From positions 149,003 through 213,002 of the forward strand of contig JBAYWF010000001.1 of NCBI GenBank assembly GCA_041674205.1: 64,000 bases of DNA, written 5' to 3'. This document shows, piece by piece, positions 5,435-62,191 of the stretch. Made by a program: the position numbers and the translations under genes. Source of the DNA: Parcubacteria group bacterium. Its GTDB lineage: Bacteria > Patescibacteriota > Minisyncoccia > Moranbacterales > UBA2206. The number at the start of each line of letters is the position of its first letter. The first letter of the stretch is position 1. Below the pieces are notes generated by a model, which saw only the letters and a program-made list of their open reading frames with translations, was not told the origin of the DNA and ran no database searches.

Positions 5435-6253
5435 ATGGATGAAAAAAAACCGGAAGTTTCCGTCCTGATGTCCGCGTACAATGAGGAAAAATATGTCAGC
5501 GCCGCCATCGAAAGCATCTTGGACCAGACCTATCGCGATTTCGAATTGATCGTCATCGATGATTGTAGCCGGGACGCGACTTGGAAGCTGATTGCCGGAT
5601 ATGCCGGGCGCGATCCGCGGGTGCGGGCGTCCAGGAATGAAAAAAATTTGGGGATTTCCAGCACGCTCAACAAGGGACTCGCGCTAGCCCGCGGGAAATA
5701 TATCGTCAAGATGGACGCGGACGATTGGTCCTACCCGGACCGTTTGGAAAAGCAAGTCAGGTTTATGGAAAAAAATCCCCAGGTCGCCATCAGCGGCGGT
5801 ACGATGGAAGTGTGTGATGAGGGGATGGTTGTCCTGAATAAGCGGCCGTACAACTTGACTGACCGGGAGATACGCCGGAAAATTTTCCTGTATAATCCGT
5901 TCTGCCATCCGGCGGTGATCTACCGGACGGACATCGCCAAAAGGGTCGGCGGCTATTGTTTGATCGATTCGGCCGGCGATTATGAATTGTATTTCAAGCT
6001 CGGATTGCACGGGGAGTTCGCTAATTTGCCGGATGTCCTGTTGAAATACCGGGTCAACCGCGGTTCCATTTCCGTCTATAAGGCGAGAAGCCAGGAGCGC
6101 GACACGCTGTATGTGCGGCTCAAGGCGGTTTTCGAATACGGCTACAGGATGCGTCCGGTCGATAAACTATATTTCGCCTGCCAGTTTTTGAGTATGTATC
6201 TCATCCCGCAACGGACCAAGGCCTGGATATTTAACCGGTTAAGAAGCAATTGA
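5435..6253 (+). CDS. family-2 glycosyltransferase
   Basis: VLMSAYNEEKYV, LIVIDDCSRD and KMDADD motifs identify a GT-A fold GT2. Confidence 0.8.
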   Translation: MDEKKPEVSVLMSAYNEEKYVSAAIESILDQTYRDFELIVIDDCSRDATWKLIAGYAGRDPRVRASRNEKNLGISSTLNKGLALARGKYIVKMDADDWSYPDRLEKQVRFMEKNPQVAISGGTMEVCDEGMVVLNKRPYNLTDREIRRKIFLYNPFCHPAVIYRTDIAKRVGGYCLIDSAGDYELYFKLGLHGEFANLPDVLLKYRVNRGSISVYKARSQERDTLYVRLKAVFEYGYRMRPVDKLYFACQFLSMYLIPQRTKAWIFNRLRSN

Positions 6254-7935
6254 TCACTATGGTCGGATTTTTTCAAAAAATCAGCGCGTCCTTCCGCAAA
6301 AACATATTGCCGGTCACTTTGGCCTTGGCGGTTTTTTTCAGTCTGGCCAGCTTCCTTTTTTTCTATTTGGACGGACAGCGGAACACCACCTATTTCGACG
6401 CGCAATCCCATCTCAATATGGCCCGCAAAATCGTGGACAATTTGAATCCCGGTTTGGGCCAGCTCGGCGGCTTGTGGCTGCCGCTTCTGCATCTTTTGAT
6501 GGTGCCGTTCATCTGGAATGATTTTATGTGGCATTCCGGTTGGGCGGGAGCTTGCGTTTCGATGCCGGCTTTCGTCCTGTCGGTCTATTTCGTTTTCAAG
6601 ACCGTCGAACTGCTTTTCCGCGATCGGACGGCGGCCTTTCTCGGCGCTTTGGTATATATGTCCAGTTTCAATATGCTTTTGCTCCAGAGTATGGCGATGA
6701 TGGAACCGCTATTCAATCTGACGATCATCGGCAGCATCTATTATCTTTCCCGCTGGGCCAGGACGGACAACTTGGTGGATCTGTCCGGCGGGGCTTTCTT
6801 TGTTTTTTTGAGCACGCTGACCCGCTATGAAGGCTACGCGGTTTTGGCGGCATCGGCCGCCGCCGTGCCCATCGTCACTTTCATAAAAAATTTCAACGCG
6901 TCTCATCGGTATCGGATCGTGGAAGGCAAATTCCTGATTTTTATGACGCTGGCGTCTTTCGGCGTCTTGCTGTGGCTGGCCTACTCGCTGGTGATTTTCG
7001 GCGATCCTTTGCATTGGACCCATCCTAATGCCGCGGATGTGGCAACGGTCGCTGAAACTGTCCGGAGCGGAAGCCCGTCCGAAATTATGCGCGGGGATCC
7101 TACGGATTATTACCGGCACGATTTGTCCAAGGCACTTCTGACATTTTGGTGGACCGCGGCCATCGGCAACGGTCTGGTGGTTTTTTTCGCGGGCATAGCG
7201 GGCTTCCTGTCGCTCTTGTGGTTTTGCGGGAGGAATATCCGCTATGCCTATCTGTTCATTCCGGCCGTGTTGGTTTCTGTCGCGTTTCCGCTGTTCATCC
7301 TGGTGCTGATGTATCTGGGCCAGGTTTCGCTCCTGCCGCCGTTCCTCGGTTTCGCCGGCATCTTCGACAAGGGGAATAATCTGGCTGACGAAGCCGGCAT
7401 CCGTTACACTCTCGCGATGCTGCCGCTCCTTGCGATTTTTATAGGCTGGCTGGCCGCGGGCGGAGCGTACCGTAAAATTACCGTTTTCCTGCTCATCGTT
7501 TTCCAAGTCGGCGCATTTTTTTCCGGACCGCTGTTCCTGACCTATGACCTTTCCTTGAAATGGGAAAGCGTGTACGGACAGGAAAACCGTTCGGTGGAAT
7601 GGTTCAAGGAAAATTATTCCGGCGGACTCATCCTGGCAAGCGCGTTGTCCCACGAGGCGGAAATTTTCCAGAACGGGCTGGCGTACAAGAACTATATCCA
7701 CGAGGGAACCGGCCATTATTGGGAAGAATCCTTGAAAAACCCGGTGCGTTACGCGACCTGGATAATTATGAACAAAAGCGCCAAGACGGACACGTCCGGC
7801 ATCTGGGGACAGGACATCCTGACCAACCGTTTCCGCAATTCAAAGGTCCTGCGGAACAATTTCGACTTGGTATATGATGACGGTAAAATTATGATTTACA
7901 AAATAAAAGCCAATAAGGAATTGCTCCATTTTTGA
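6250..7935 (+). CDS. GT-C fold membrane glycosyltransferase (ArnT/PMT/GT39-83-like), putative partner of the GtrB-like enzyme
   Basis: 561-aa polytopic protein with periplasmic loops. It sits in an operon with a polyprenyl-P-sugar synthase, matching the classical ArnC-ArnT / GtrB-GtrC logic. The family call is inference. Confidence 0.5.
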   Translation: MITMVGFFQKISASFRKNILPVTLALAVFFSLASFLFFYLDGQRNTTYFDAQSHLNMARKIVDNLNPGLGQLGGLWLPLLHLLMVPFIWNDFMWHSGWAGACVSMPAFVLSVYFVFKTVELLFRDRTAAFLGALVYMSSFNMLLLQSMAMMEPLFNLTIIGSIYYLSRWARTDNLVDLSGGAFFVFLSTLTRYEGYAVLAASAAAVPIVTFIKNFNASHRYRIVEGKFLIFMTLASFGVLLWLAYSLVIFGDPLHWTHPNAADVATVAETVRSGSPSEIMRGDPTDYYRHDLSKALLTFWWTAAIGNGLVVFFAGIAGFLSLLWFCGRNIRYAYLFIPAVLVSVAFPLFILVLMYLGQVSLLPPFLGFAGIFDKGNNLADEAGIRYTLAMLPLLAIFIGWLAAGGAYRKITVFLLIVFQVGAFFSGPLFLTYDLSLKWESVYGQENRSVEWFKENYSGGLILASALSHEAEIFQNGLAYKNYIHEGTGHYWEESLKNPVRYATWIIMNKSAKTDTSGIWGQDILTNRFRNSKVLRNNFDLVYDDGKIMIYKIKANKELLHF

Positions 7936-8128: not shown

Positions 8129-8260
8129 AAAACAACCTCATTTTAATATATTTAAAGGTCGAGGCGGAAACTGCCATAAGTTTCAAAATTTTTATTCCGA
8201 TTCATAAAATAGGAATAAAAAATAATTTTAATCAGCGCTTAATAAATAATAAAAAAAACT

Positions 8261-9442
8261 ATGAAAAAAATGATCAAAAGCGGGCTCATCGTGCTTGCGG
8301 TCGCTGCGATTGCCGGGTATGGAACATACTCGTTCTTCAGCGACACAGAAACATCGACGGGAAACAATTTTACCGCAGGAGAAATCGACCTGACCGTAAC
8401 CCATACTGACAGCGCTACGGACGGCGCTTGTACGTTTGACAATACATCAGGCGGACCGATTTTTAATTGTACCGATGTAAAACCTGGGGACGCAGGTGAA
8501 AGCACGTTGACATTCAACCTTACAAGCAACCCTGCTTGGGCATGTATGTATGTGGATAATGTCGTTGATAGCGATAATGGATGCAATGATCCGGAATTGG
8601 CCGCTGAATCAGTTTGTGCGGTAGATGGAAATGGTGAATTGGACGACGCTTTGATGCTTACTGTTTGGGTTGACGATGGGGTTGGAGGTGGAATAGTATG
8701 CAATAATATCCGAGACGGATCGGAACAAATAATTATAGAAGATCAGTCATTGAGCTCTTTCGTGTTACCAACAGGAGGCTATGTCCTTCCTATTTCAGAC
8801 GCGAGTGCCGATTCTATGATGGCTGATCCAGTCCAACCGGGTGACCATTGTGTCGGTGTCGCGTGGAGTGTCGATCCAACGGCAGGAAACGAAGTGCAGA
8901 CGGATAAATTAGGCGGTGATCTGACCTTCTATGTTGAACAGGCAAGAAACAATGATGGATTCACATGCGCGGCACATTTCACGCCTGCGGAAGGAGTGCA
9001 AACATTGACTCTTGAAAATGAGATACAGAATCCGACAGGACCTTGGACACCGATTACCGGTGACGGGATACAAGGAACATTAGCTTGGCAAGGAGATGGA
9101 GATACATTTGATTACACTCTAGCTGCGCAAGGATTACCCGCTAATTCATCATACAGTTTGATTTATTATGCTGATCCTTACCCAGGTAATAATCCAGGTA
9201 AATTAATCGGAACACACATGACCGATGGAGGTGGCAACATCAATGCTGCTGGAAATCCAGATCTAGGAATGGATTTGCCAGATCCTGCAGATGCTAACTT
9301 CGGGACTGGTGCTAAGATTTGGTTGATTCCAAGCAGTGCATATGATGCTGCGAGCAGTAGTATCATTTCTTGGACACCAGATACTACTACCTGGTTGTTC
9401 GAAGGTAATGTTTACATCCATTACAACGATACGAATAACTAA
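8261..9442 (+). CDS. TasA/camelysin-like secreted protein with SipW-cognate signal peptide (paralog 1)
   Basis: The N-terminus AIAGYGTYSFFSDTETSTGNNFTAGEIDL resembles the B. subtilis TasA signal/cleavage region (TWAAFNDIKSKDATFASGTLDL). It shares internal motifs VKPGDAGE...AWACM and ADLTFYVEQARNN with paralog 2. Confidence 0.7.
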   Translation: MKKMIKSGLIVLAVAAIAGYGTYSFFSDTETSTGNNFTAGEIDLTVTHTDSATDGACTFDNTSGGPIFNCTDVKPGDAGESTLTFNLTSNPAWACMYVDNVVDSDNGCNDPELAAESVCAVDGNGELDDALMLTVWVDDGVGGGIVCNNIRDGSEQIIIEDQSLSSFVLPTGGYVLPISDASADSMMADPVQPGDHCVGVAWSVDPTAGNEVQTDKLGGDLTFYVEQARNNDGFTCAAHFTPAEGVQTLTLENEIQNPTGPWTPITGDGIQGTLAWQGDGDTFDYTLAAQGLPANSSYSLIYYADPYPGNNPGKLIGTHMTDGGGNINAAGNPDLGMDLPDPADANFGTGAKIWLIPSSAYDAASSSIISWTPDTTTWLFEGNVYIHYNDTNN

Positions 9443-9553
9443 ACAAGATGTAGTCTTTCACTTCCGCTCATTTTCAAAATGGGCGGGAGAATAAAGATCT
9501 AAGGATAATTAATTACTTGCATAAGTAAGTACCTAAGTAAGTATTAAAACAAT

Positions 9554-10897
9554 ATGGTGAAAATATTGAAAAGCCTTACAATCGTCATTGCCATCGCGGC
9601 CATCGCGGGGGGAGCATCCTATTCGTTTTTCTCCGACACGGAAACGTCGACTGGCAATATGTTCACGGCGGGGGTTATCAATTTAAAAATTGATAATTCA
9701 AGTTATGCCATAGATTCTGTTATTCCTGGGTTTGATGATCCGGTGGGAGATTTGGTTGCGAGTCCGCACAATACCTGGTCCTATGACAACCTCACCGATC
9801 AACTATTTTTCAATTTTGAAGATTTGAAACCGGGGGATATAGGGGAAGACACGATCGGTTTGCAAGTTTCCAGTAATGACGCTTGGGCGTGCATGAAGGT
9901 GGACATAACGGACACTCCTGAAAATGATTTGATAGATCCGGAAGCGGAAGCGGGGGACAAGACGGAAAAGAACGGGGAGCTTCAAGATGAGCTAAGTTTC
10001 GCTTTTTGGGCGGATGACGGGGACAATGTATATGAAGATGAGGAAGTCATGCTTGACGACGGCAATCCAGGCATATTTTTAGAAGGAAAAGCCGCGGATA
10101 TTTTCAAAAATAAATTTATTACGCTGGCTGATTCAACGACTGATGTGTGGCCTGGCGGCAATGGACATCCGATAATTGCAGGCGAAAATTATTATATTGC
10201 TAAGGTTTGGTGCTTTGGAGAATTGACCCCGGCACCTGTCTCATCCGGAGATGGAGATCCTCTCCATCGCGGAACCGGATTTTTATGTGATGGAGACTCA
10301 GTTTCCAGCGCGTCTCAAACGGATGGGATAAAAGCGGATGTGACGTTTTATTCGGAACAAGCCAGGAACAATCCGCAGTTCGTTTGTTATCAGCAGGAGT
10401 GTTCGGCTGATGCTGTCTATACGTCAGAGGTCGTAAGTAATATCCAAGGCACGCTTAATGACGGTAGTCCCGTCATTGATCCGGATCGGACTGACCCGGA
10501 TGAAGCCAATGGTCCGCCGGATTGGGTTAGCGGAACCGGTACGAACTTTTATAGTCTGGGTAAGGATGGGACGGTGACTTTGAAATTTGCCGATATGGTC
10601 GGCAATGGTAATGGAAATGACCTCGCTGTCTATGAAGTGACCAATGGGCGCGATTCATATCCGCTGGAAAGTGCGGATGTGGAAGTGAGTCTCAATGGAA
10701 AGACTTGGTATCCTGTCGGCGTAGCTACGAGTGAACCTGGTGGGGATGGCGTTTCATATTTTGACATATCTTCCACCCCTCTTTCAATGTTCAAATATGT
10801 AAGACTGGCTGATTCGACTGATTTCTCTTTGCACAACAGTATTTCCGACGGGTTTGACTTGGATGCGGTTGGCGCTATCTACGGGGAATGTGAATAA
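9554..10897 (+). CDS. TasA/camelysin-like secreted protein with SipW-cognate signal peptide (paralog 2)
   Basis: N-terminus AIAGGASYSFFSDTETSTGNMFTAGVINL, plus LKPGDIGEDTIGL...AWACMKVD and ADVTFYSEQARNN motifs. Confidence 0.7.
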   Translation: MVKILKSLTIVIAIAAIAGGASYSFFSDTETSTGNMFTAGVINLKIDNSSYAIDSVIPGFDDPVGDLVASPHNTWSYDNLTDQLFFNFEDLKPGDIGEDTIGLQVSSNDAWACMKVDITDTPENDLIDPEAEAGDKTEKNGELQDELSFAFWADDGDNVYEDEEVMLDDGNPGIFLEGKAADIFKNKFITLADSTTDVWPGGNGHPIIAGENYYIAKVWCFGELTPAPVSSGDGDPLHRGTGFLCDGDSVSSASQTDGIKADVTFYSEQARNNPQFVCYQQECSADAVYTSEVVSNIQGTLNDGSPVIDPDRTDPDEANGPPDWVSGTGTNFYSLGKDGTVTLKFADMVGNGNGNDLAVYEVTNGRDSYPLESADVEVSLNGKTWYPVGVATSEPGGDGVSYFDISSTPLSMFKYVRLADSTDFSLHNSISDGFDLDAVGAIYGECE

Positions 10898-10944
10898 TCA
10901 TTGCTAAATAGGTGTCCCATTGCGTGTTATAAAAATATATCTCA

Positions 10945-12027
10945 ATGAGTAAAATTCTAACAAGATTTTCTAGAAACCTGATTATAGCCATTTTTATTTT
11001 AGCTATGGGGGGATATGAGACGTATGCTTGTGTCGTGCAAGGCAAGGAGCCTTTTTGGCATAACTTTCCCGATAAGAAATTGGATTTGGAGATAAGTTAT
11101 GCCGGATATTATAATAAGGATGCCGACAACCATCCTAATGCGGGAAGCTGGCGGCAACAGGACCTGACTACGCAGAAATTTTTTGATTTCTATGATATCA
11201 AACCGGGCGATTTCGGTGAGGGCACAATCGGTTTGCGCCTCAAACACCAAGACGCTTGGGGTTGTGCTACCATCCGTCCGACCGAAAACGATGATAACGG
11301 CTCCACTGAACCGGAATTGCTCGAGGATGCGCAAAATGCGGCAGCTGATAAATGGGATGGCGAGTTGGCGAAAAAAATTAATTTTAAGATCTGGGCCGAT
11401 GTTTGTTCGAAAAGATATGTGAAAGCGGGCGATAACGTTTTTCAGCCTGATTGCGATCGGCTTATAACCAGCGGTACCGGTCCGTTGCAGGAGCTTAACT
11501 TGGTTTTGGCTGACGCTGAAAATCCGAATGTTTTCAATGGGAATATAGGACCGCTCAAAAAAAACAAAAACTATTATATAGGCGTAGATTGGAATATCGA
11601 TTCGGATGTCGGCAATATCATCCAAACTGATTCATATAAGGCAGACATAACTTTTTTTGTCCAGCAGTCGGACGGCAACCAGGACTTCCGTTGCGCGGAT
11701 ATCCGTAATGATGATCCGGATAAATGCGCGGATGGCGCCATACGCAATTGTTATTCAGGTGATTTCGATAAAATCGATATCGGCATCTGTCGAAGCGGGA
11801 CTGAAGCTTGCGTTCAAGGAAATTGGGGAAATTGTTCCGGAGAGATTTTACCTGACAAGGAAATCTGCAAAGACAATCTGGATAACGACTGTGACGGGCA
11901 AATCAATAAAGGATGCCCGCCGATATGCCAGCGCGTGAGTGATTGCGATGACCACAATTCAAAAACCGATGACAACTGCGTGAACAAAGAATGCGTGCAT
12001 GCGGAGAAAAAGAACTTAAAGCGGTAA
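10945..12027 (+). CDS. TasA-like paralog 3 with C-terminal Cys-rich MopE-like putative metal-binding domain
   Basis: Shares IKPGDFGEGTIGL...AWGCATI and ADITFFVQQSDGN with paralogs 1 and 2. It has a different hydrophobic N-terminus. The C-terminal ~110 aa carry about 16 Cys, including CKDNLDNDCDGQINKGC (a C-x-DG-x-DNDCDG signature). Confidence 0.6.
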   Translation: MSKILTRFSRNLIIAIFILAMGGYETYACVVQGKEPFWHNFPDKKLDLEISYAGYYNKDADNHPNAGSWRQQDLTTQKFFDFYDIKPGDFGEGTIGLRLKHQDAWGCATIRPTENDDNGSTEPELLEDAQNAAADKWDGELAKKINFKIWADVCSKRYVKAGDNVFQPDCDRLITSGTGPLQELNLVLADAENPNVFNGNIGPLKKNKNYYIGVDWNIDSDVGNIIQTDSYKADITFFVQQSDGNQDFRCADIRNDDPDKCADGAIRNCYSGDFDKIDIGICRSGTEACVQGNWGNCSGEILPDKEICKDNLDNDCDGQINKGCPPICQRVSDCDDHNSKTDDNCVNKECVHAEKKNLKR

Positions 12028-12050
12028 CACATAAGATAATATGAAAAGAT

Positions 12051-12707
12051 ATGCTAGATAAAATTTTTAAAATTTTAAAAAATCTCATTTGGACTGCAAT
12101 CGTCGCATTTCTGATTTTGATCGGCATAACATTCATTCCGATCAAAGGAAATTACAAGGTTTATACGGTACAATCAGGTTCGATGGAGCCAGCTATCCAT
12201 ACCGGCAGTTTGATTTTTGTCAAAAGCCAGGAGGATTACAACGTCGGTGACATTGTAACGCGGGCGACCAAAGATCCAAGAGTGACTGTCACGCATCGTA
12301 TCATTTCTAAAAAAACGGAAGGTAGTAAGGTAGTATTTGAAACCAAAGGAGATGCTAATGAGGATCCAGATAGGGAAAGCGTAAGCCAAGATAGGATTAT
12401 CGGCAAGGAATTTTTTCAGATACCGTATATCGGTTATCCAGTCGGATATGCTCGGACGATGCCAGGATTCATCATTCTTATAATTATCCCAGCTGTAATT
12501 ATCGTTTATGAAGAGATTAGGAAAATCAAAGAAGAAATCGTGAATATTTGGAAAAAGAAAAATGGGAAAGAAGATCTGCCTGCGGAAGATCATTTATTGG
12601 AAAAGAAATATGTTCGGGTGTCGAGAGAAGATAATATCTCAAATATAAGTTTTGAAACTAAGGAAAATCAGACTAAGAAAGAAAAAATCAGTCGGAAAAA
12701 AAGATAA
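12051..12707 (+). CDS. sipW: signal peptidase I, archaeal/eukaryotic type (SipW-like, S26B)
   Basis: N-terminal TM anchor, catalytic Ser motif VQSGSMEPAI, conserved His in VTHRIIS, and KGDANEDPD box. It has a Lys-rich C-terminal tail. Confidence 0.8.
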   Translation: MLDKIFKILKNLIWTAIVAFLILIGITFIPIKGNYKVYTVQSGSMEPAIHTGSLIFVKSQEDYNVGDIVTRATKDPRVTVTHRIISKKTEGSKVVFETKGDANEDPDRESVSQDRIIGKEFFQIPYIGYPVGYARTMPGFIILIIIPAVIIVYEEIRKIKEEIVNIWKKKNGKEDLPAEDHLLEKKYVRVSREDNISNISFETKENQTKKEKISRKKR

Positions 12708-12722
12708 TTCTTTTAAGGAGGT

Positions 12723-13181
12723 TTGCGCGGGCCATATAAAAAACATTCAAATATGAAAGAGATTTACAAATCATTGGCACGGATTTCCATCGTAACCTTT
12801 CTGGTTGTTTTTTTCTTTGATATGAATCGTATTATTGGCACTAATTCTTCTTTTGGTGATATGGAATTGTCTTCAGATAATTCGTTTGTTGCTGGAAAGT
12901 GGGAGGAAAAAACAGATGCCATACTCAAAATCAAAGATCTTAGTTTGCCTGAAGATAAATTGGACACGGTAATTTTTCCTACGATAAGCGAGCAAGTTGA
13001 CAGTCCGCTATCTGAGCCGTCCTTGCCTGTGGATGATGATGTTTATGCTCAAGAAGAGGTTCCCAATGAAGAGGTTCAGAGTGTTCTTGATGCTGAAGAT
13101 CCGGTAGAACAGGAGCAACCTTTGCCATCGGATGAGTCGGACGCTCCGGCTGTGGATGGAGAGGAACAGGAATCATTGTGA
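12723..13181 (+). CDS. small SipW-cognate secreted protein with acidic C-terminal tail (TapA-like accessory candidate)
   Basis: TM/signal segment then GTNSSFGDMELSSDNSFVAG, the same motif class as the TasA-like N-termini. The C-terminal half is strongly acidic (D/E/P-rich). Start is uncertain: TTG at 12723 or ATG at 12753. Confidence 0.5.
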   Translation: MRGPYKKHSNMKEIYKSLARISIVTFLVVFFFDMNRIIGTNSSFGDMELSSDNSFVAGKWEEKTDAILKIKDLSLPEDKLDTVIFPTISEQVDSPLSEPSLPVDDDVYAQEEVPNEEVQSVLDAEDPVEQEQPLPSDESDAPAVDGEEQESL

Positions 13182-13367
13182 TAAACACTTGTGATGTAAT
13201 CCAGGATATTTATTCAATGGGAAGTGGATAGGATGGGACTGCTACAATAATCGGCAATCAATGCCGTTTTTTTGTTTTTTACGCTTTTATTGACAAACCA
13301 ATCCGGTTGGGATAGCTTGGAAGCAACCAATAAAATCAAAATACAACTTAAATAAGGGAGGAGCCAG

Positions 13368-14679: not shown

Positions 14680-15804
14680 CTAATCAGTCGGGTCGATCAG
14701 TTCCAGATTGCGCGTGTGCCAATTCAGGACGGCCGTTTTTTTGACCATCAACTTGAACATATCAGGATGTTCCTTTTGGATGACCTCGGAAGCATATTGG
14801 CTTAAAAATTGCGACTTCAATTCGGCTCGGGCTTTGTCCACGCCGATTTCCGAATAGGGGGCCGAAGTCAGAAGCAGGAAGCCGTCCTTGGGGATCATCC
14901 CGCGCTCCATATTTGATTTGATGATGCCGGCCGCGGTCTTGATCGGTCCGCTGATGTCGGGACTGTATGGTCCGATGATGAGCGCGATGTTGGGCACGTG
15001 CAAAAAGTCGAAACCGCGTCCGATGCAAATGATCCATTCGCGATGCACCGAATCCAGTTCCAAATTCCGGTGGGCGTTGCGGATGTCGGCGATGTGTTCG
15101 ATGTTGCCGGTGACCAGCGGCAACAAATCGCGCAACACTTGGTCGGGCATATCCGGATACATCGCGCGCAATTTGTTGGTCAGGAATTCTTTGGATGGGT
15201 CCGTGCTTTCAGCCAGATTGAAAATTTCTTTGTTTTCCCCGTCGTGGAGGATTATCGCGTCTTCGTCGGTTTCGATTCCGCAAATCAACGGATAGACAGC
15301 CTGGTGGTTTTGGCCGAAAATATATTCCGCTTGCTTTTTGACTTCGAAAACGTGCTTGACGGCGGCAGCGCAATCATATTGGAAGCCGGCGCATCCCCGG
15401 TGTCCGTCGCCTTTGGAATAGTGGTAGGTGATGATCATCAGGACCCGGCGGGAATCTTCGATGGCGGCATTGACCGTGTTATAGAGCACTTCGCCCAGAT
15501 ACGGCCAGCCCAAATCGAACATTCCGCCGATATTGCGGAAAGGCTTGATGATACCCAGGGGGGTCTTGGTCGCGTAGGGCAGGTGGATCCGGCCGTCCAT
15601 ACATTTTAAAGCGATTATCATCGTCGGATGTTTGGCGGAATATCTTTTGCGGGAAAGATAGGCATCGGAAGAACAGTAGGCATCGGAATGTTTTTTGCTC
15701 AAATCCAAGAGCCAGTCGATCCGTTCCTGGATCGGCATATGGTAGATATCCGCTTCGCGGGCATCGATGTATTTATTGATTTCCTTCATATAGGTGGATT
15801 GCAA
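14680..15804 (-). CDS. hypothetical protein with beta-carbonic-anhydrase-like zinc-ligand motifs
   Basis: LKCMDGRIH (C68-x-D70-x-R72) and HRGCAG (H135-x-x-C138) match the beta-CA signature CxDxR...HxxC with similar spacing (67 versus about 60 residues). A 170-aa C-terminal extension is unassigned. Confidence 0.45.
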   Translation of the reverse strand: MQSTYMKEINKYIDAREADIYHMPIQERIDWLLDLSKKHSDAYCSSDAYLSRKRYSAKHPTMIIALKCMDGRIHLPYATKTPLGIIKPFRNIGGMFDLGWPYLGEVLYNTVNAAIEDSRRVLMIITYHYSKGDGHRGCAGFQYDCAAAVKHVFEVKKQAEYIFGQNHQAVYPLICGIETDEDAIILHDGENKEIFNLAESTDPSKEFLTNKLRAMYPDMPDQVLRDLLPLVTGNIEHIADIRNAHRNLELDSVHREWIICIGRGFDFLHVPNIALIIGPYSPDISGPIKTAAGIIKSNMERGMIPKDGFLLLTSAPYSEIGVDKARAELKSQFLSQYASEVIQKEHPDMFKLMVKKTAVLNWHTRNLELIDPTD

Positions 15805-17595: not shown

Positions 17596-17716
17596 TTTTT
17601 CATAATTAAGCCGGTTATGGCACAAAAAACGATCCAAGCTTGTACTAAGGCAATGGAACTAGGGCGGCCGGTTTTTGAAAAGGCGGCCAAAGTTTGTGAT
17701 TATGATAAATATAAAT

Positions 17717-18514
17717 ATGAAAAAAGGACATATCTGGGGAATAATTTTTATTTTAGCCGGCTTGGGAGGAGGTTATTTTTTGGCGGCGCTAAATGACAAC
17801 GGATCAAGGCGGATAAGCGTGCCGGCCGATTTCCGGAACGAAGACATTTCAAGGGTCAAAAATAATTTGCAGACGGTCGAAATGGGTATGGGCGGACAGG
17901 CGCCTTTGGAAAGCGCTCCGGACAAACTGGTGGAATTCGACGTTCCTTTCGTCGTCCAGGCTCCGACCGCGAATTGGGACGATCCTGTTTTCCAGAACGC
18001 TTGCGAAGAAGCGTCGATCATTATGGCGATGGGATGGGTCAGAGGGACTAAATCCATATCTTCGGCTGACGCGCAAAAGCAGATATTGGATCTGGATGGT
18101 TTTGAAATGAGGACTTTCGGTTATAGCTATGACACCGATGTTTCCGACGTCAAACGCATCTTCGAGGAATATTACCACCATCCCGGCGTTTCGGTCCGCG
18201 AGGATATAGCGGCTCCCGATATCATAAAAGAATTGCAAGCCGGCAACCTTGTCCTGGTTCCGGCTTTCGGCCAGGCGCTCGGAAATCCCAATTATACCTA
18301 TCCCGGTCCGGTCGTACATATGCTGGTCGTCCGGGGATATGATCCCGATAGAAGGGAATTCATCACCAATGATCCCGGAACGAAACGGGGTGCCGGGTAT
18401 CGGTATGGCGAAAAAATTTTGTTGGACGCGATCTGGCGATATCCGAGCGGGCAAGGTGTTCCGCCGGTCCCTGTAGGAAATTTTAAAAAAGCGATGGTGG
18501 TCGTTGCGAAATGA
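17717..18514 (+). CDS. secreted/anchored papain-like C39_2-type peptidase-domain protein
   Basis: Signal-anchor, then VPFVVQAPTANWDDPVFQNACEEASIIMAMGW (Gln/Cys block) and a C-terminal HMLVVRGYDPDRREFITNDP block (His, DP), as in C39-like peptidase domains. Start taken at the ATG at 17717 rather than the TTG at 17675. Confidence 0.55.
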   Translation: MKKGHIWGIIFILAGLGGGYFLAALNDNGSRRISVPADFRNEDISRVKNNLQTVEMGMGGQAPLESAPDKLVEFDVPFVVQAPTANWDDPVFQNACEEASIIMAMGWVRGTKSISSADAQKQILDLDGFEMRTFGYSYDTDVSDVKRIFEEYYHHPGVSVREDIAAPDIIKELQAGNLVLVPAFGQALGNPNYTYPGPVVHMLVVRGYDPDRREFITNDPGTKRGAGYRYGEKILLDAIWRYPSGQGVPPVPVGNFKKAMVVVAK

Positions 18515-26810: not shown

Positions 26811-27278
26811 ATGTTGGACATCAAACCTTATCGCCAAAAGCCTGGATTTTGCGGTCCGTCTGCCTTGAAGATGGTGTTGGGTTTCTATGGTGTGGAGAAA
26901 AGCGAGGATGAATTGGGCTGTCTTACCAAGTGCGATCCGGACAAAGGCATTACCGGGTCAGCCATTGTCAAAGCGGCCGGGGAATTGGGTTTTGCCGGGT
27001 TTGTGAAAGATTCTGCCGAGCTGGAGGATATCCAGAAATTTTTAGACCAAAAGATACCTGTCATCGTGGAGTGGTTTTCGGAGGATGACGGGCACTATTC
27101 GGTGGTGGTGGAGATGGATAAGGAAAATATTTATTTGCAAGATCCGGAATTGGCCGGATTGCGGAAATTTGATTTGGAAACTTTCAGGAGGGTCTGGTTC
27201 ACCTTCGGCGGTGAATTTATGCGGACTAAAGACGACCTGATCTTGCGCCGGATGGTCGTAATTGAAAAGAAAGGTTAA
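26811..27278 (+). CDS. standalone C39-like cysteine peptidase domain protein
   Basis: RQKPGFCGPSALKMVLGFYG matches the C39 Gln/Cys N-terminal block (Q...DCG.A.L.M...YG). DGHYSVVVEMDKENIYLQDP matches the C39 His block (gHfVV......v.i.DP). Confidence 0.6.
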   Translation: MLDIKPYRQKPGFCGPSALKMVLGFYGVEKSEDELGCLTKCDPDKGITGSAIVKAAGELGFAGFVKDSAELEDIQKFLDQKIPVIVEWFSEDDGHYSVVVEMDKENIYLQDPELAGLRKFDLETFRRVWFTFGGEFMRTKDDLILRRMVVIEKKG

Positions 27279-41306: not shown

Positions 41307-44300
41307 GTGCCAAAAACAAATAAAAACATACTGCTGGTATTTTGTCTGGCCCTTGGTTTGGTTTTTTCTTGCGAGGGAGCCAGTGCCAGAGAAACCATAA
41401 ATATCAATACCGACACGACCTGGACCAAGGAAACTTCTGATCTGGTTTTTGACAAGCCGATTGCCATTGGAAATGGTGCGACCTTGACCATCGAGAAAGG
41501 TACGAGGGTGGTTTTCCAAGTTAATCCCAACCAGCCTTTCAACTCTGCGGGGTTCGAGGTACTTGACGGGAAACTGGTCGCGAACGGGACGCGCGAGGAA
41601 AATATCGTATTCACTTCGCCGGACGACGGTTTCAAGCTGCTTTTTAGCGATAATGATCAGCCTTCTTTTTTGCTCTATGTGACCCTGGAAAACGGCGGTT
41701 TCATTCCGACTATGGAAGGCAGCGGCGATTTCGTGCCGAAATTTCCGGTTTTTGAAATCAACGGTGGCAAGGTCCATATCGAGAATTCCCAGTTTGCCAA
41801 TAGCCGGTTCAGGGAAATAAGTATTTCAGATGTTCCAATCCAGGATGCGGAAGGCAACGATGTGTATGATGAAAATGATAATCTTGTGCAAAACAAAGCC
41901 CAAGTGGATGTCATAAATTCCAATTTTTCCAACCAAAATGCCGTGGATTCCCAACTGGATTGCTGGGCGTATGATGAAGAAGCGGATGAAGATTATGTGG
42001 ATCAGGATTGTCTCAAACGGGTGAATTTGAAAGATGATTGGTTTGGGAATCCGGCCGGACCGACGACTGATGAGGATGAAGAACAAGGGATTGTAAAAGG
42101 CTATCGGGTAACCGGACAATTTTATCTGGATTCTTGGCGGACGGCTGATGAGATAATTGATGCCAGTCAAAATTGCATGGAAAATTGTTTTTCCAACGTG
42201 CTTTTTTTGCCAGGCATCAAAACCAGCCGGCTGTATAGAGATGGAGATGATGGAAAGAAGGATAAATTGTGGTTGCCTGATTATTTTGAGGATGATCTGG
42301 AAAAATTAGCACTGGATGAAAACGGGAAAAGCGTTAATGAAGTATATACACAGGACGTTTTGGATAGCATCGGTATTTGGGGGATTGGCGGTGATATTTA
42401 CAAAAATTTCATAGATATTCTGGCTGAATTGAAAACTAAGAATACGATCAATGATTATGAATCCTTTGCTTATGACTGGCGTCAAAGTGTGGAAGATGTG
42501 GCACAGAACGGAACTCCGTATGAAAATATAACGAAATCGGCGATAGTCGATTTGCAGGCGCTGGCAGAGAATTCTAAAAGTAAAAAAGTGACCATCGTGG
42601 CCCATTCCAATGGCGGCTTGGTAGCTAAAGCAGTGATGATGGAGCTGGAAAAATTAGGAATGGCTGACAAGGTGGACAAGGTTATCCTTGTTGGCACTCC
42701 GCAGATGGGGACGCCAATCTCGATCCTTTCGCTTCTGTATGGCTATGATGAAGAATCAACCTTTCTGCAAGTGTTGATTTCGCGGGAAGATGCCCGCGCT
42801 TTAGCGGAAAATATGCCTGGAGCCTACGGGCTTTTGCCGGGTGAAAAATATTTTGAGCGTATGGAAAGTCCGTTCATCAAATTTTCATCCGAAAATACCC
42901 GATACAAAAGTTTCAAGGACGCATATGGTGAAAACATCGACAATTTTGATGAATTCAGGAAATTTTTGCTTGGGAAAGATGATGGCCGAGAAGACCCCGA
43001 CAAAAGCGATGTTGAAATGGAGAATGTGTTAAATGAAAAAATATTGAACCAGGCTAGGGAAATCCATCAGCATTTGGATAATTGGGTGCCACCATCAACA
43101 GTCGAAGTTATTCAAATTGCCGGTTGGGGGTTGGATACGATAAGCGGAGTGGAATATACAGAAAAAGAAAAAACCCAATGTTATATCGCTCCCGGAGCTA
43201 AAATCCCATCTTGTTCCGGTATGGGAGAATATGAGTCGGTTTATGAACCGAAATTCACCGTGGATGGCGACAGGGTGGTGGTGGCGCCAAGCGCTTTGAT
43301 GTTGGCCGAGTCAGAAAATGTAAAGAGATATTGGGTGGATTTATATGGGTATAATGATAATAATGTTCCAGATAGAGAACATAAAAATATTACAGAGATA
43401 GAATCAGTAAGAAATGTATTGGATATGTTGATTAGAAATTTAGATTTATCTTCAAATTTGCCTGAGTTTATTAAGTCTTCACGTCCAGATGATTATGCCT
43501 ATGCCCAACCTCGTTTAAGGATGTCCCTGTATTCACCTTTGGACATCCATCTATATGATGATTTCGGTCATCATACCGGACCTAAAAAAAACACGGATGA
43601 AAACGGGCAAGAATACGTGATTTTTGAAAAAGAAATTCCGAATAGCTATTATTATCAGTTCGGAGAACGGAAATATGCCGGCTTCCCTAAAGGTGAACAT
43701 ATCCGCGTAGAAATGGATGGCTATGCCCTGGGTTCATACACTCTAAAATTAGAAGAAGCGAAAGTGACTGAAGCAGGCGAAGAAACAATCGCACAAACGG
43801 CTTTTGAAAATCTTCCAACTACGGCTGACACGACCGTAAAGCTGGAGATTCCGGAAACCGGCATCGAAAATCCATTGTCTTTGCAGGCCGACATCGACAG
43901 CGATGGCGCGGTTGAATATGAATTGGCTTCTGTTCAAGATGGCGCAGTTACCTTGGATGTGATCGCTCCCGTTGCAGAAATTTCCATAGCTGGCACAAAG
44001 AGTAATAAAGAAGAATCAAAAACCGAAACGATCAGAATTGACAAAGCCACGTTGGAAGCCAACGTGCAGTTTAATCCGGATACGCAAAAAACGGATATCA
44101 GCGGTGCTGATAACCTGACCCAGGTTTCGGTTGTGCCAGAAGAACAAATAGGTGATAATAGCCATAAGTCAAAAAACAAAATATATTCCTGGCTTTCAAA
44201 ATTGTTCTTGGGAAAACAGGATAGGATCACTACGGTAGTCGCTACTTTAATGATGGCAACGATGACAGTGATCGGCGTCCGGTTCGTAAAAAAATGGATG

Positions 44301-44309
44301 GGATGGTGA
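41307..44309 (+). CDS. large secreted, C-terminally anchored protein with beta-helix-like N-domain and alpha/beta-hydrolase (lipase/PGAP1-like) domain
   Basis: Signal peptide (LVFCLALGLVFSCEG). N-terminal parallel-beta-helix-like repeats. Central VTIVAHSNGGLVAKAV (GxSxG nucleophile elbow) ... ILVGTPQMGTP. C-terminal TM anchor TTVVATLMMATMTVIGV. Confidence 0.6.
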   Translation: MPKTNKNILLVFCLALGLVFSCEGASARETININTDTTWTKETSDLVFDKPIAIGNGATLTIEKGTRVVFQVNPNQPFNSAGFEVLDGKLVANGTREENIVFTSPDDGFKLLFSDNDQPSFLLYVTLENGGFIPTMEGSGDFVPKFPVFEINGGKVHIENSQFANSRFREISISDVPIQDAEGNDVYDENDNLVQNKAQVDVINSNFSNQNAVDSQLDCWAYDEEADEDYVDQDCLKRVNLKDDWFGNPAGPTTDEDEEQGIVKGYRVTGQFYLDSWRTADEIIDASQNCMENCFSNVLFLPGIKTSRLYRDGDDGKKDKLWLPDYFEDDLEKLALDENGKSVNEVYTQDVLDSIGIWGIGGDIYKNFIDILAELKTKNTINDYESFAYDWRQSVEDVAQNGTPYENITKSAIVDLQALAENSKSKKVTIVAHSNGGLVAKAVMMELEKLGMADKVDKVILVGTPQMGTPISILSLLYGYDEESTFLQVLISREDARALAENMPGAYGLLPGEKYFERMESPFIKFSSENTRYKSFKDAYGENIDNFDEFRKFLLGKDDGREDPDKSDVEMENVLNEKILNQAREIHQHLDNWVPPSTVEVIQIAGWGLDTISGVEYTEKEKTQCYIAPGAKIPSCSGMGEYESVYEPKFTVDGDRVVVAPSALMLAESENVKRYWVDLYGYNDNNVPDREHKNITEIESVRNVLDMLIRNLDLSSNLPEFIKSSRPDDYAYAQPRLRMSLYSPLDIHLYDDFGHHTGPKKNTDENGQEYVIFEKEIPNSYYYQFGERKYAGFPKGEHIRVEMDGYALGSYTLKLEEAKVTEAGEETIAQTAFENLPTTADTTVKLEIPETGIENPLSLQADIDSDGAVEYELASVQDGAVTLDVIAPVAEISIAGTKSNKEESKTETIRIDKATLEANVQFNPDTQKTDISGADNLTQVSVVPEEQIGDNSHKSKNKIYSWLSKLFLGKQDRITTVVATLMMATMTVIGVRFVKKWMGW

Positions 44310-61348: not shown

Positions 61349-62191
61349 ATGCAAAATAAAAATACCCTTGCGATTTTTGAAGGACATAAAATCCGTCGGC
61401 AATATGATGAAAAAACGGAAACTTGGTATTTTTCAGTGATTGATATTGTGGCCGCACTATTAGATCAAGCTGATTACAACAGAGCAAAGAGTTATTGGAC
61501 AACCTTAAAAAATCGCTTGAAAGAGGAGGGAAGTGAAGTGGTCACAAGATGTGACCAGTTGAAAATGTTAGCTCAAGATGGAAAAATGCGAGAAACTGAT
61601 GTGGCTAATCCAGAAACGATATTACGTCTCATCCAATCCGTGCCAAGCAAAAAAGCGGAGCCAATCAAATTGTGGCTAGCTAAAGTCGGATATGAGCGGA
61701 TGCAAGAAATCGCCGATCCGGAAAGGGGTCTGAATCGTGCGCGGGAGAATTGGCAAAAACTCGGCCGAAGCAATGAATGGATCCAGCAACGTATGATGGG
61801 GCAAGAAATCCGAAACAAACTGACGGATTACTGGAGTGATAATGAGGTGAAAAAGGGAGAAGAGTTTGCCATTCTGACTAATATCATCCACGAAGAATGG
61901 ACGGACTTGTCGGTCAAAGAGCACAAAAATTTGAAAGGTCTGAAAGCGCAAAATTTGCGCGATCATATGACGGATGCGGAACTGGTTTTCACCGCCCTAG
62001 CGGAACTATCCACTAAACAAATCGCGGAAAGTTTGGAAGCGAAAGGCTTGATAGAAAACAAAGTCGCCGGCCGGAAAGGCGGCCGGGTTGCAAAAAACGC
62101 GCGGGTTGAGTTGGAAAAGAAAACCGGCCGGAAAATCGTGTCAGGCAGAAATTTTCTGGACGCAAAGTCGCAAAAGAGGCTGGGGAAATAA
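61349..62191 (+). CDS. DinD-like (DNA-damage-inducible protein D) protein with N-terminal Bro-N/KilA-N-like domain
   Basis: N-terminal LAIFEGHKIRRQYDEKTETWYFSVIDIVAAL matches the Bro-N pattern. The C-terminal region parallels E. coli DinD (FAILTNIIHEEW..., LKGLKAQNLRDHMTDAELVFTA..., KKTGRKIVSGRNFL). Confidence 0.6.
   Translation: MQNKNTLAIFEGHKIRRQYDEKTETWYFSVIDIVAALLDQADYNRAKSYWTTLKNRLKEEGSEVVTRCDQLKMLAQDGKMRETDVANPETILRLIQSVPSKKAEPIKLWLAKVGYERMQEIADPERGLNRARENWQKLGRSNEWIQQRMMGQEIRNKLTDYWSDNEVKKGEEFAILTNIIHEEWTDLSVKEHKNLKGLKAQNLRDHMTDAELVFTALAELSTKQIAESLEAKGLIENKVAGRKGGRVAKNARVELEKKTGRKIVSGRNFLDAKSQKRLGK

Follow-up and report, generated by a model that had tools for sequence, protein, structure and literature searches.

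A candidate TasA-type, SipW-dependent extracellular system in a Moraniibacteriota genome and the three gene classes of its relatives in Patescibacteria

Introduction

Does a bacterium of the Moraniibacteriota [Patescibacteria, or Candidate Phyla Radiation (CPR)] encode an extracellular fibre of the TasA type? The question is raised by five genes at 8261–13181 of a 64,000 nt stretch of its genome (the window; assembly GCA_041674205.1, contig JBAYWF010000001.1, positions 149,003–213,002). The genes encode three paralogous proteins (A, B and C), a signal peptidase (SipW) and a small protein (E). We propose, with moderate confidence, that they form one transcription unit for a TasA-type, SipW-dependent extracellular system in which A and B would be donor-strand polymers, E the starter and C the end of the chain.

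Many of the ultra-small CPR bacteria are believed to be attached to host cells, and type IV pili have been discussed as a means of this attachment (PMC6744442). In Bacillus subtilis, SipW cuts TasA before residue 28, and residues 28–38 then serve as the donor strand that completes the next subunit; in the TasA model, the groove of a subunit must be filled before that subunit extends its donor strand (PMC9674648). The N-terminus of TapA mimics the TasA donor strand and is the proposed source of the first strand (PMC9674648; PMC10151520). Homologs matching PF12389 have been reported before in Patescibacteria (PMC9245690), and the proteins already bear names in databases. In the literature searched, SipW and TasA in CPR are covered only by a one-line statement on distribution (PMC9245690), and we found no description of the CPR operon architecture, of paralogs that have the subunit body without the donor-strand block, or of SipW fusions.

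Results

Signal, donor-strand block and jellyroll body of the subunits

A preliminary description of the window had placed five open reading frames (ORFs) here and read them as three TasA/camelysin-like paralogs, a signal peptidase and a TapA-like small protein. All five are present and co-directional on the + strand. The motifs that it quoted also exist, namely YSFFSDTETSTGN.FTAG in A and B, SSFGDMELSSDNSFVAG in E, and SGSMEP, THRII and GDANEDPD in the peptidase. A (8261–9442, 393 aa), B (9554–10897, 447 aa) and C (10945–12027, 360 aa) are paralogous over their first ~240–280 residues (BLASTP E-values of 4e-34, 1e-24 and 7e-25, the latter two being those of C to B and to A, respectively). The subunits A and B scored 24.9 and 27.6 bits with TIGR04088, the model of the SipW-cognate signal (cutoff 19), as the preliminary description had anticipated, and 29.3 and 24.4 bits with PF12389 (gathering score 22.5). 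The PF12389 matches are confined to the signal and donor region (profile positions 3–63 and 12–51 of 196).

In A, a signal peptide (residues 1–24, predicted SipW cut TYS↓FF) is followed by the donor-strand block FFSDTETSTGNNFTAGEIDL (residues 25–44; 8333–8392, + strand) and by a jellyroll body that extends to ~residue 240. The N-terminal part of B (9554–10399, + strand) likewise consists of a signal peptide (predicted cut SYS↓FF), the donor-strand block FFSDTETSTGNMFTAGVINL (9626–9685, + strand) and a TasA-like jellyroll body (residues ~44–282). When TWA↓AFNDIKSKDATFASGTLDL of TasA is aligned with TYS↓FFSDTETSTGNNFTAGEIDL of A, the CPR block falls exactly at the position of the TasA donor strand. 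Across the CPR family, we also observed little or no variation at N35 of the donor block, at the D[LIV]KPGD Lys and at the GE.T Glu; the Lys/Glu pair is K74/E80 in A and K92/E98 in B. These residues recall the intermolecular isopeptide triad N35-K74-E56 of BsaA, but the Glu is placed differently.

The link of the body to TasA is not visible by sequence, and structure prediction was therefore needed. The AlphaFold2 model of B had a mean predicted local distance difference test (pLDDT) score of 86.9. Residues 1–245 of A were modelled alone so that the two beta-sandwiches would not be confused (pLDDT 80). The predicted mature domain fits the TasA jellyroll fold, with 8aur as the best match in the Protein Data Bank (PDB) and two archaeal donor-strand filaments lower in the list of structural matches. 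The jellyroll that the preliminary description expected was thus obtained for the modelled subunit bodies. The only segment below pLDDT 50 in both monomer models was the post-cleavage block (residues 23–40 and 28–37), which is what is expected of a strand that folds only inside a neighbouring subunit. The resemblance to TasA that had been claimed can be read from the sequence in the signal and donor region; it does not extend in this way to the body, which is larger than that of TasA and carries extra C-terminal modules.

These modules differ between A and B. That of A (residues ~245–393; 8990–9442; LENE...YSLIYYADPYPGNNPG...FEGNVYIHYNDT) has a fold without assignment. It matched no Pfam family, gave a marginal profile match to immunoglobulin (Ig) V-set light chains of antibodies (E 0.007) and recurs among many CPR TasA-like proteins (P0135–P0143). 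The C-terminal domain of B (residues ~283–447; 10400–10897, + strand) is predicted to be a beta-sandwich with the CBM32/discoidin (F5/8 type C) fold, and its Pfam scores lie below the gathering scores (PF22633, 15.3 versus 27.8 bits; PF00754, 12.8 versus 28.2 bits). It is presumably a carbohydrate-binding module.

The signal peptidase is of the Sec11/SipW type

The gene that follows C (12051–12707, + strand) encodes a protein of 218 aa which scored 120.5 bits with the SipW model TIGR02228 (cutoff 51.85) and 30.5 bits, below the cutoff of 47, with the LepB-type model TIGR02227. It aligned to human SEC11A and SEC11C (7p2p, 7p2q; E 4e-10) with three motifs in register: SGSMEP, THR and KGDANEDPD correspond to SGSMEP, VHR and KGDNN..DD. 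This is the Ser-His(-Asp) arrangement of Sec11 and not the Ser-Lys dyad of LepB, and the assignment to family S26B (Sec11/SipW) made in the preliminary description was borne out. The predicted catalytic residues are S44 and H82, the GDANEDPD motif spans D101–D107, and a hydropathy scan placed two transmembrane segments at ~residues 5–35 and 133–159, one N-terminal and one C-terminal, with a basic C-terminal tail.

We conclude from these matches that SipW is an endoplasmic reticulum (ER)/archaeal-type signal peptidase I. With the Bacillus SipW equivalog model NF046067, the score was 117.4 bits and thus below the cutoff of 190; judged by these scores, the enzyme is of the same type as Bacillus SipW and stands outside the Bacillus orthologous group. 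Adjacency is the ground on which we infer that it cleaves the adjoining TasA-like proteins.

E carries the block without a body

The last gene, E, starts 15–45 nt past sipW. Its start is more probably the ATG at 12753, as annotated in the closest relative (12753–13181, + strand, 142 aa), than the alternative TTG at 12723 (152 aa). A hidden Markov model (HMM) of the N-terminal region, built from residues 1–52 of 84 CPR homologs, was run against the 806 ORFs of the window. It found B (1.7e-22), A (2.9e-18) and E (9.6e-5; 17.9 bits) and did not find C, which means that three proteins carry the block and that C has the body only. The block had been claimed for four consecutive proteins; it is present in A and B, where TIGR04088 detects it, and, by the weak match to the CPR HMM, in E.

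E has a signal peptide (predicted cut GTNS↓SF), a donor-strand-like block SFGDMELSSDNSFVAG that aligns to positions 6–41 of the HMM, and an acidic tail of ~85 residues rich in Pro, Glu and Asp. The mature protein would have 110 aa and a pI of ~4.05. The weak match is backed by the positional ortholog at locus L007, which carries the same motif (NRISGTNAIFVDKEKSSENFFIAS, 17.2 bits) followed by an acidic tail and stands in a locus whose C protein is 63% identical to that of the window. Among three aligned E orthologs, the invariant residues lie mostly at positions 16–52. Databases hold only E itself and one ortholog with 81% identity; further relatives were located by position and motif.

The preliminary description had called E TapA-like. 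We found no match of E in Pfam or NCBIfam, TIGR04088 included, and no likeness to TapA in sequence or fold; TapA has a V-set Ig domain where E has the acidic tail. What E shares with TapA is an N-terminus that mimics a donor strand and a gene beside sipW. These features support a likeness in function and not membership of the TapA family; judged by sequence, E is not a TapA homolog, and the likeness is confined to the donor-strand-like N-terminus.

C carries the body without the block

C has an AxA-type signal peptide cleavage site (ETYA↓CVVQ) and no FFSDTETS donor block, a TasA-like body (residues ~40–250) and a Cys-rich C-terminal domain (residues ~250–360) with a MopE-like Cys motif that scored 18.7 bits, which is under the threshold. 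The position of FFSDTETS is taken by GGYETYA↓CVVQGKEPFW. The proposal of three TasA/camelysin-like paralogs with SipW signals holds for the body, which A, B and C share, and fails for C at the N-terminus: C matched neither TIGR04088 (no match at E ≤ 1, as for E) nor PF12389 nor the CPR N-terminal HMM (E > 10).

The block is absent in all twelve homologs of the C subfamily (P0123–P0134, 52–95% identical). They replace it by GGYEAYA↓C(F/V)VQGKEP.W or A.AEA↓.F..C.W.FW, in both cases an AxA-type cleavage site followed by a Cys- and Trp-rich segment. Since the block is replaced throughout the subfamily, C is not a demonstrated SipW-type substrate. We also considered, and rejected, the idea that body-only paralogs had lost exactly the 11 residues of the donor strand; the segment is replaced (e.g. 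by RGVEPGVTFAT).

The three gene classes recur around SipW

We scanned one genome per species with patterns taken from the C-subfamily alignment, which yielded 249 confirmed relatives in 80 loci. Counts are given for 84 non-redundant loci, nearly all from Patescibacteria, whose ORFs were sorted by three probes: the signal-plus-donor HMM, a body HMM built from residues 55–282 of B, and phmmer with the window SipW. The hosts include Moraniibacteriota, Woesebacteria, Saccharibacteria, Kaiserbacteria, Campbellbacteria and the cultivated Candidatus Microsyncoccus archaeolyticus (L080). The order conserved across these loci is one to four canonical subunits with block and body, often one body-only paralog, SipW, and then a block-only protein.

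SipW was encoded in 77 of the 84 loci, with all elements co-directional in 75 of the 77. The number of canonical subunits in the SipW loci was one in 9, two in 52, three in 13 and four in 3 (n=77). Full-length body-only paralogs occurred in 28 loci and lay directly 5′ of SipW in 25 of these. Directly 3′ of SipW, a block-only protein (140–909 aa) was encoded for 38 of 79 SipW ORFs, and 8 of 10 large block-only proteins examined contained a lamin-tail domain (LTD). E is the shortest of this class. A further 23 of the 79 SipW ORFs were fused to a block-bearing segment, in the layout SipW, linker, hydrophobic segment, Y/F-F-S-D-x-E-x-S-x-x-N block and further domain (e.g. L018:7899–9107 and L072:4618–6162). 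The fusions are found in L004, L010, L011, L012, L018, L021, L032, L035–L037, L039, L041, L043, L058, L059, L062, L067, L072, L076, L077, L082 and L086. They amount to a peptidase joined to its own presumed substrate, and the window SipW and E to the split form. For 16 of the 79 SipW ORFs no partner was found at the strict threshold; the window belongs here, although E was found in the smaller search.

The motifs follow the classes. Of 176 canonical subunits, 166 have the donor motif with its Asn and 170 have the KPGD acceptor motif. Among 31 body-only paralogs, none has the former and 30 have the latter. The donor motif with its Asn also occurs in all 19 strict-threshold fusion ORFs. Instead of the donor block, the commonest body-only class has ..ARG.E.G.TFAT.G ahead of the IDLKIDS strand. 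At E ≤ 1e-10, an exhaustive search with the body of B retrieved 898 sequences, each representing a 50%-identity cluster; the matches begin, with few exceptions, at target residue ~25, and the targets are 195–992 aa long. We conclude that the operon is homologous to TasA systems and that its genes fall into three classes.

Two further observations were made on these loci. In a TasA-like paralog of L007 (5587–6954), ~180 inserted residues separate the donor-strand block from the jellyroll body, and the corresponding gene in a contig of the Joint Genome Institute (JGI) matches DUF642; the domain is thus inserted in the linker meant to reach the next subunit. Clusters of the CPR type were also found on contigs labelled Candidatus Hadarchaeota archaeon (L016, L025) and on others labelled Bdellovibrionales, Gammaproteobacteria or Pseudomonadales (L033, L035, L041, L049, L055, L081). 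These could be mis-binned CPR contigs or cases of horizontal transfer.

Boundaries and neighbourhood of the operon

The intergenic gaps are 111, 47, 23 and 15–45 nt, the last depending on the start of E. A terminator-like hairpin, CGGCAATCAATGCCG followed by TTTTTTT, was found by consensus scan 71 nt past the E stop codon (13252–13273, + strand) and is the only one in the region with a strong + strand T-tract past the last gene. The short gaps and this hairpin fit a single transcription unit. The promoter-like site TTCAAA-17-TAAAAT 5′ of A (8182–8210, + strand), from a consensus scan only, is weak evidence because 17 such sites were found and 12.8±3.4 are expected in shuffled sequence, which is no excess. 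The G+C content of the operon is 42–46%, compared with ~50% in the upstream flank. The closest homolog of B (94% identity) is from a Candidatus Moranbacteria metagenome-assembled genome (MAG). Scans of the 64 kb window for tRNA genes and Rfam families gave no matches.

In the closest genome (L001), the five genes and their downstream neighbours are kept, and genes for GH81, GT2 and HlyD-like proteins are inserted upstream. The glycosyltransferase genes of the window were matched in only one to three of ~83 related loci. Given these insertions and this rarity, the glycosylation island that had been put forward as a partner of the operon is not a conserved neighbour, and we rejected a functional link between the two as a conserved feature. 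A sortase-anchored pilus was rejected as well: A, B, C and E contain no LPxTG motif, and none of the scanned window ORFs encodes a sortase. These ORFs also include no type IV pilus gene. At the distant locus L005 (Beckwithbacteria), a sortase adjoins the cluster.

Several other genes deserve mention. Directly 5′ of the operon lies a gene for a multi-pass membrane protein of 561 aa without Pfam match (6250–7935). Its ortholog in L001 is 88.7% identical and is separated from the operon by four inserted genes, and a homolog with 32% identity lies 5′ of the TasA-like cluster in L005. The protein might be a glycosyltransferase-like partner, or its recurrence might be coincidental. A protein of 374 aa (14680–15804, − strand), 96% conserved in L001, weakly matches the catalytic domain of carboxysome-shell carbonic anhydrase (PF20686, E 2.3e-7), which is unexpected for a CPR genome. 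Two ORFs (17675–18514 and 26811–27278) encode C39-like cysteine peptidase domains to which no ABC transporter domain is attached. A protein of 1000 aa with an LCAT/PGAP1-like alpha/beta-hydrolase domain (41307–44309) is a putative lipase or acyltransferase of large size, encoded in a reduced genome. A Bro-N domain protein is encoded at 61349–62191; this domain is usually associated with phages or mobile elements.

Discussion

We propose the following mechanism. SipW would cut A, B and E between a small residue and the sequence (F/S)F.D.E.S..N.F.AG and thereby free the block as an N-terminal strand. The strand of one subunit would enter the jellyroll of the next, so that A and B would polymerise by donor-strand exchange, and the C-terminal modules (CBM32-like in B) would decorate the fibre as adhesin or lectin domains. 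The strand of E, SFGDMELSSDNSF, would fill the groove in A or B. Because E donates a strand and cannot accept one, it would start the chain in a TapA-like manner. C accepts a strand and has no canonical one to pass on, and for this reason would terminate the chain, with its Cys-rich domain sited at a fibre end. Homology to TasA of B. subtilis is our ground for inferring polymerisation. The assignment of start to E and end to C, which is backed by conserved genomics, is the more speculative part.

A number of observations weigh against this proposal. A profile of 86 family members found no PDB chain at E ≤ 10, TasA included, and the Pfam match of A and B is restricted to the signal and donor region. 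The bulky C-terminal domains (150–165 aa) on every subunit may not fit a TasA-like packing, and the conserved block could be a SipW recognition element instead of a donor strand. The block match of E is weak (17.9 bits) and does not reach E = 1e-3 in a search of 9122 ORFs, and E is atypical in lacking the lamin-tail domain found in most block-only proteins examined from other loci. C may be cleaved, stay membrane-anchored or donate a non-canonical strand. The census sample is biased, as loci were retrieved via C-subfamily patterns. Finally, a fibre of this kind in CPR bacteria was not found in the literature searched.

In the main alternative reading, A, B and C would be non-polymerising adhesins or lectins, secreted or at the cell surface, and would work as monomers by way of their C-terminal binding modules. 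SipW would be a signal peptidase, either dedicated or general for the reduced genome, and the block its recognition or sorting tag. Each subunit has a large C-terminal module, that of B CBM32-like, sequence likeness to TasA is limited to the signal region, the likeness in fold is moderate, and the silence of the literature on a CPR fibre fits this reading as well. Signal peptidases, however, read chiefly the −3 and −1 positions. Here, 15–20 residues are conserved on the mature side of the cut, at the proven position of the TasA donor strand (PMC9674648), which suggests a function after cleavage, and both monomer models leave this block disordered. Monomeric adhesins would also hardly account for two complementary classes, body-only and block-only, whose places around SipW are fixed in dozens of loci. 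We regard non-polymerising adhesins as a serious but rather unlikely alternative. Somewhat less likely still is a fibre with its ends exchanged, in which C is the uncleaved, membrane-anchored base next to the cell and the block-only protein (E, or the LTD protein in most CPR) is a distal tip adhesin and not a TapA-like nucleator. In the widespread body-only class, an Arg immediately follows the hydrophobic segment (..YARGVEPG..), an unusual arrangement where a Sec signal is cleaved. At other loci, the block-only proteins are large, reaching up to 909 aa, and contain LTD or Ig-like domains, as is typical of adhesins. The C subfamily of the window, on the other hand, has a canonical AxA site (AYA↓C, AEA↓x), which suggests cleavage. 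Moreover, the donor-only component acts first in the TasA model (PMC9674648), and the coupling or fusion of SipW with the block-only protein parallels the co-expression of tapA and sipW in Bacillus, where stop and start codons overlap (PMC10151520).

Annotation suggests two more readings. PF12389 is named Peptidase_M73, and NCBI labels one homolog as an 'M73 family metallopeptidase', so that A, B and C might be taken for camelysin-type (M73) metalloproteases. None of the operon proteins contains an HExxH motif, the part matched by Pfam is confined to the signal and donor region, and the peptidase label of CalY has itself been held a probable misidentification (PMC11580942). We therefore rejected this reading, which appears highly improbable. 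The JGI name of several homologs would make them precursors of ribosomally synthesised peptides with a SipW-like leader. This has next to no credibility for proteins of 360–447 aa with confidently folded globular domains (pLDDT 80–87) and an operon without modification enzymes.

Returning to the donor-strand fibre, a wider version of it can be put forward tentatively, as a possibility that we rate well below the proposal for the window itself. Patescibacteria at large might possess a polar, TasA-derived fibre with three fixed roles, a second filament beside type IV pili that would serve host attachment. Donor-plus-acceptor subunits would carry swappable lectin or adhesin modules, and an acceptor-only end subunit would be encoded just before sipW. 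A donor-only starter would be translationally coupled or fused to SipW, so that each SipW molecule would release one nucleator. By analogy with BsaA of Clostridium perfringens, the fibre may be covalently locked via the donor Asn and the KPGD Lys.

Conservation of the operon in many CPR lineages, including the cultivated archaeal parasite (L080), makes it a second candidate for an adhesion or matrix structure in these bacteria. The three gene classes and the natural fusions of peptidase and substrate lend genetic support to the TapA-style nucleation model. The classes also predict a chain-ending subunit, which has not been described for TasA systems.

Comparison with known systems

In B. subtilis tapA-sipW-tasA, as here, a dedicated ER/archaeal-type signal peptidase is encoded beside its substrates, a SipW-cognate signal (TIGR04088) precedes a donor-strand block, the subunit is a jellyroll, and an accessory gene with a donor-strand-like N-terminus (TapA there, E here) is tightly coupled to sipW. 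The gene order had been said to mirror that of Bacillus, which is not the case: subunits, sipW and accessory gene follow one another here. There are three body paralogs instead of one, and the paralog without donor block has no counterpart in Bacillus. CPR bodies are not TasA by sequence and have conserved cysteines, and C-terminal modules are added (CBM32-like, Cys-rich and one of unassigned fold). E lacks the Ig domain of TapA, and the host is a CPR bacterium and not a Firmicute.

A working analogy, and no more, is offered by the chaperone–usher pili (Fim/Pap). These are polar donor-strand fibres whose tip adhesin, FimH, accepts a strand and gives none. FimH thus parallels C, whereas the proteins and the machinery of assembly are unrelated, and neither the periplasmic chaperone nor the outer-membrane usher is present here. 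The archaeal bundling pili (ABP) of Pyrobaculum calidifontis are closer, in that TasA-like jellyroll subunits (AbpA/AbpB) are joined by donor strands, much as would be the case for A and B; AbpA can be related to TasA only through profiles or structures, and AbpB has been proposed to give the first strand, as TapA does (PMC9245690). Unlike the operon described here, the ABP locus has no dedicated signal peptidase, and its host belongs to another domain of life.

The sipW-bsaA-bsaB-bsaC cluster of C. perfringens likewise combines SipW with several TasA-like paralogs of unequal behaviour, of which BsaA polymerises and BsaB does not (PMC11580942). It also encodes a further signal-bearing protein with an adhesion-type domain, and the donor Asn and acceptor Lys are conserved in both systems (N35 and K74 there; N35 and the Lys of D[LIV]KPGD here). 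Unlike in the window, sipW comes first, and BsaC is a vWA protein. The N-E-K isopeptide triad was established by mutagenesis in C. perfringens (PMC11580942), whereas the evidence here is residue conservation, with the Glu in GE.T, six residues after the Lys. The window operon is a typical member of a CPR-wide TasA/SipW variant and not an outlier, and it is this general architecture that is the interesting part.

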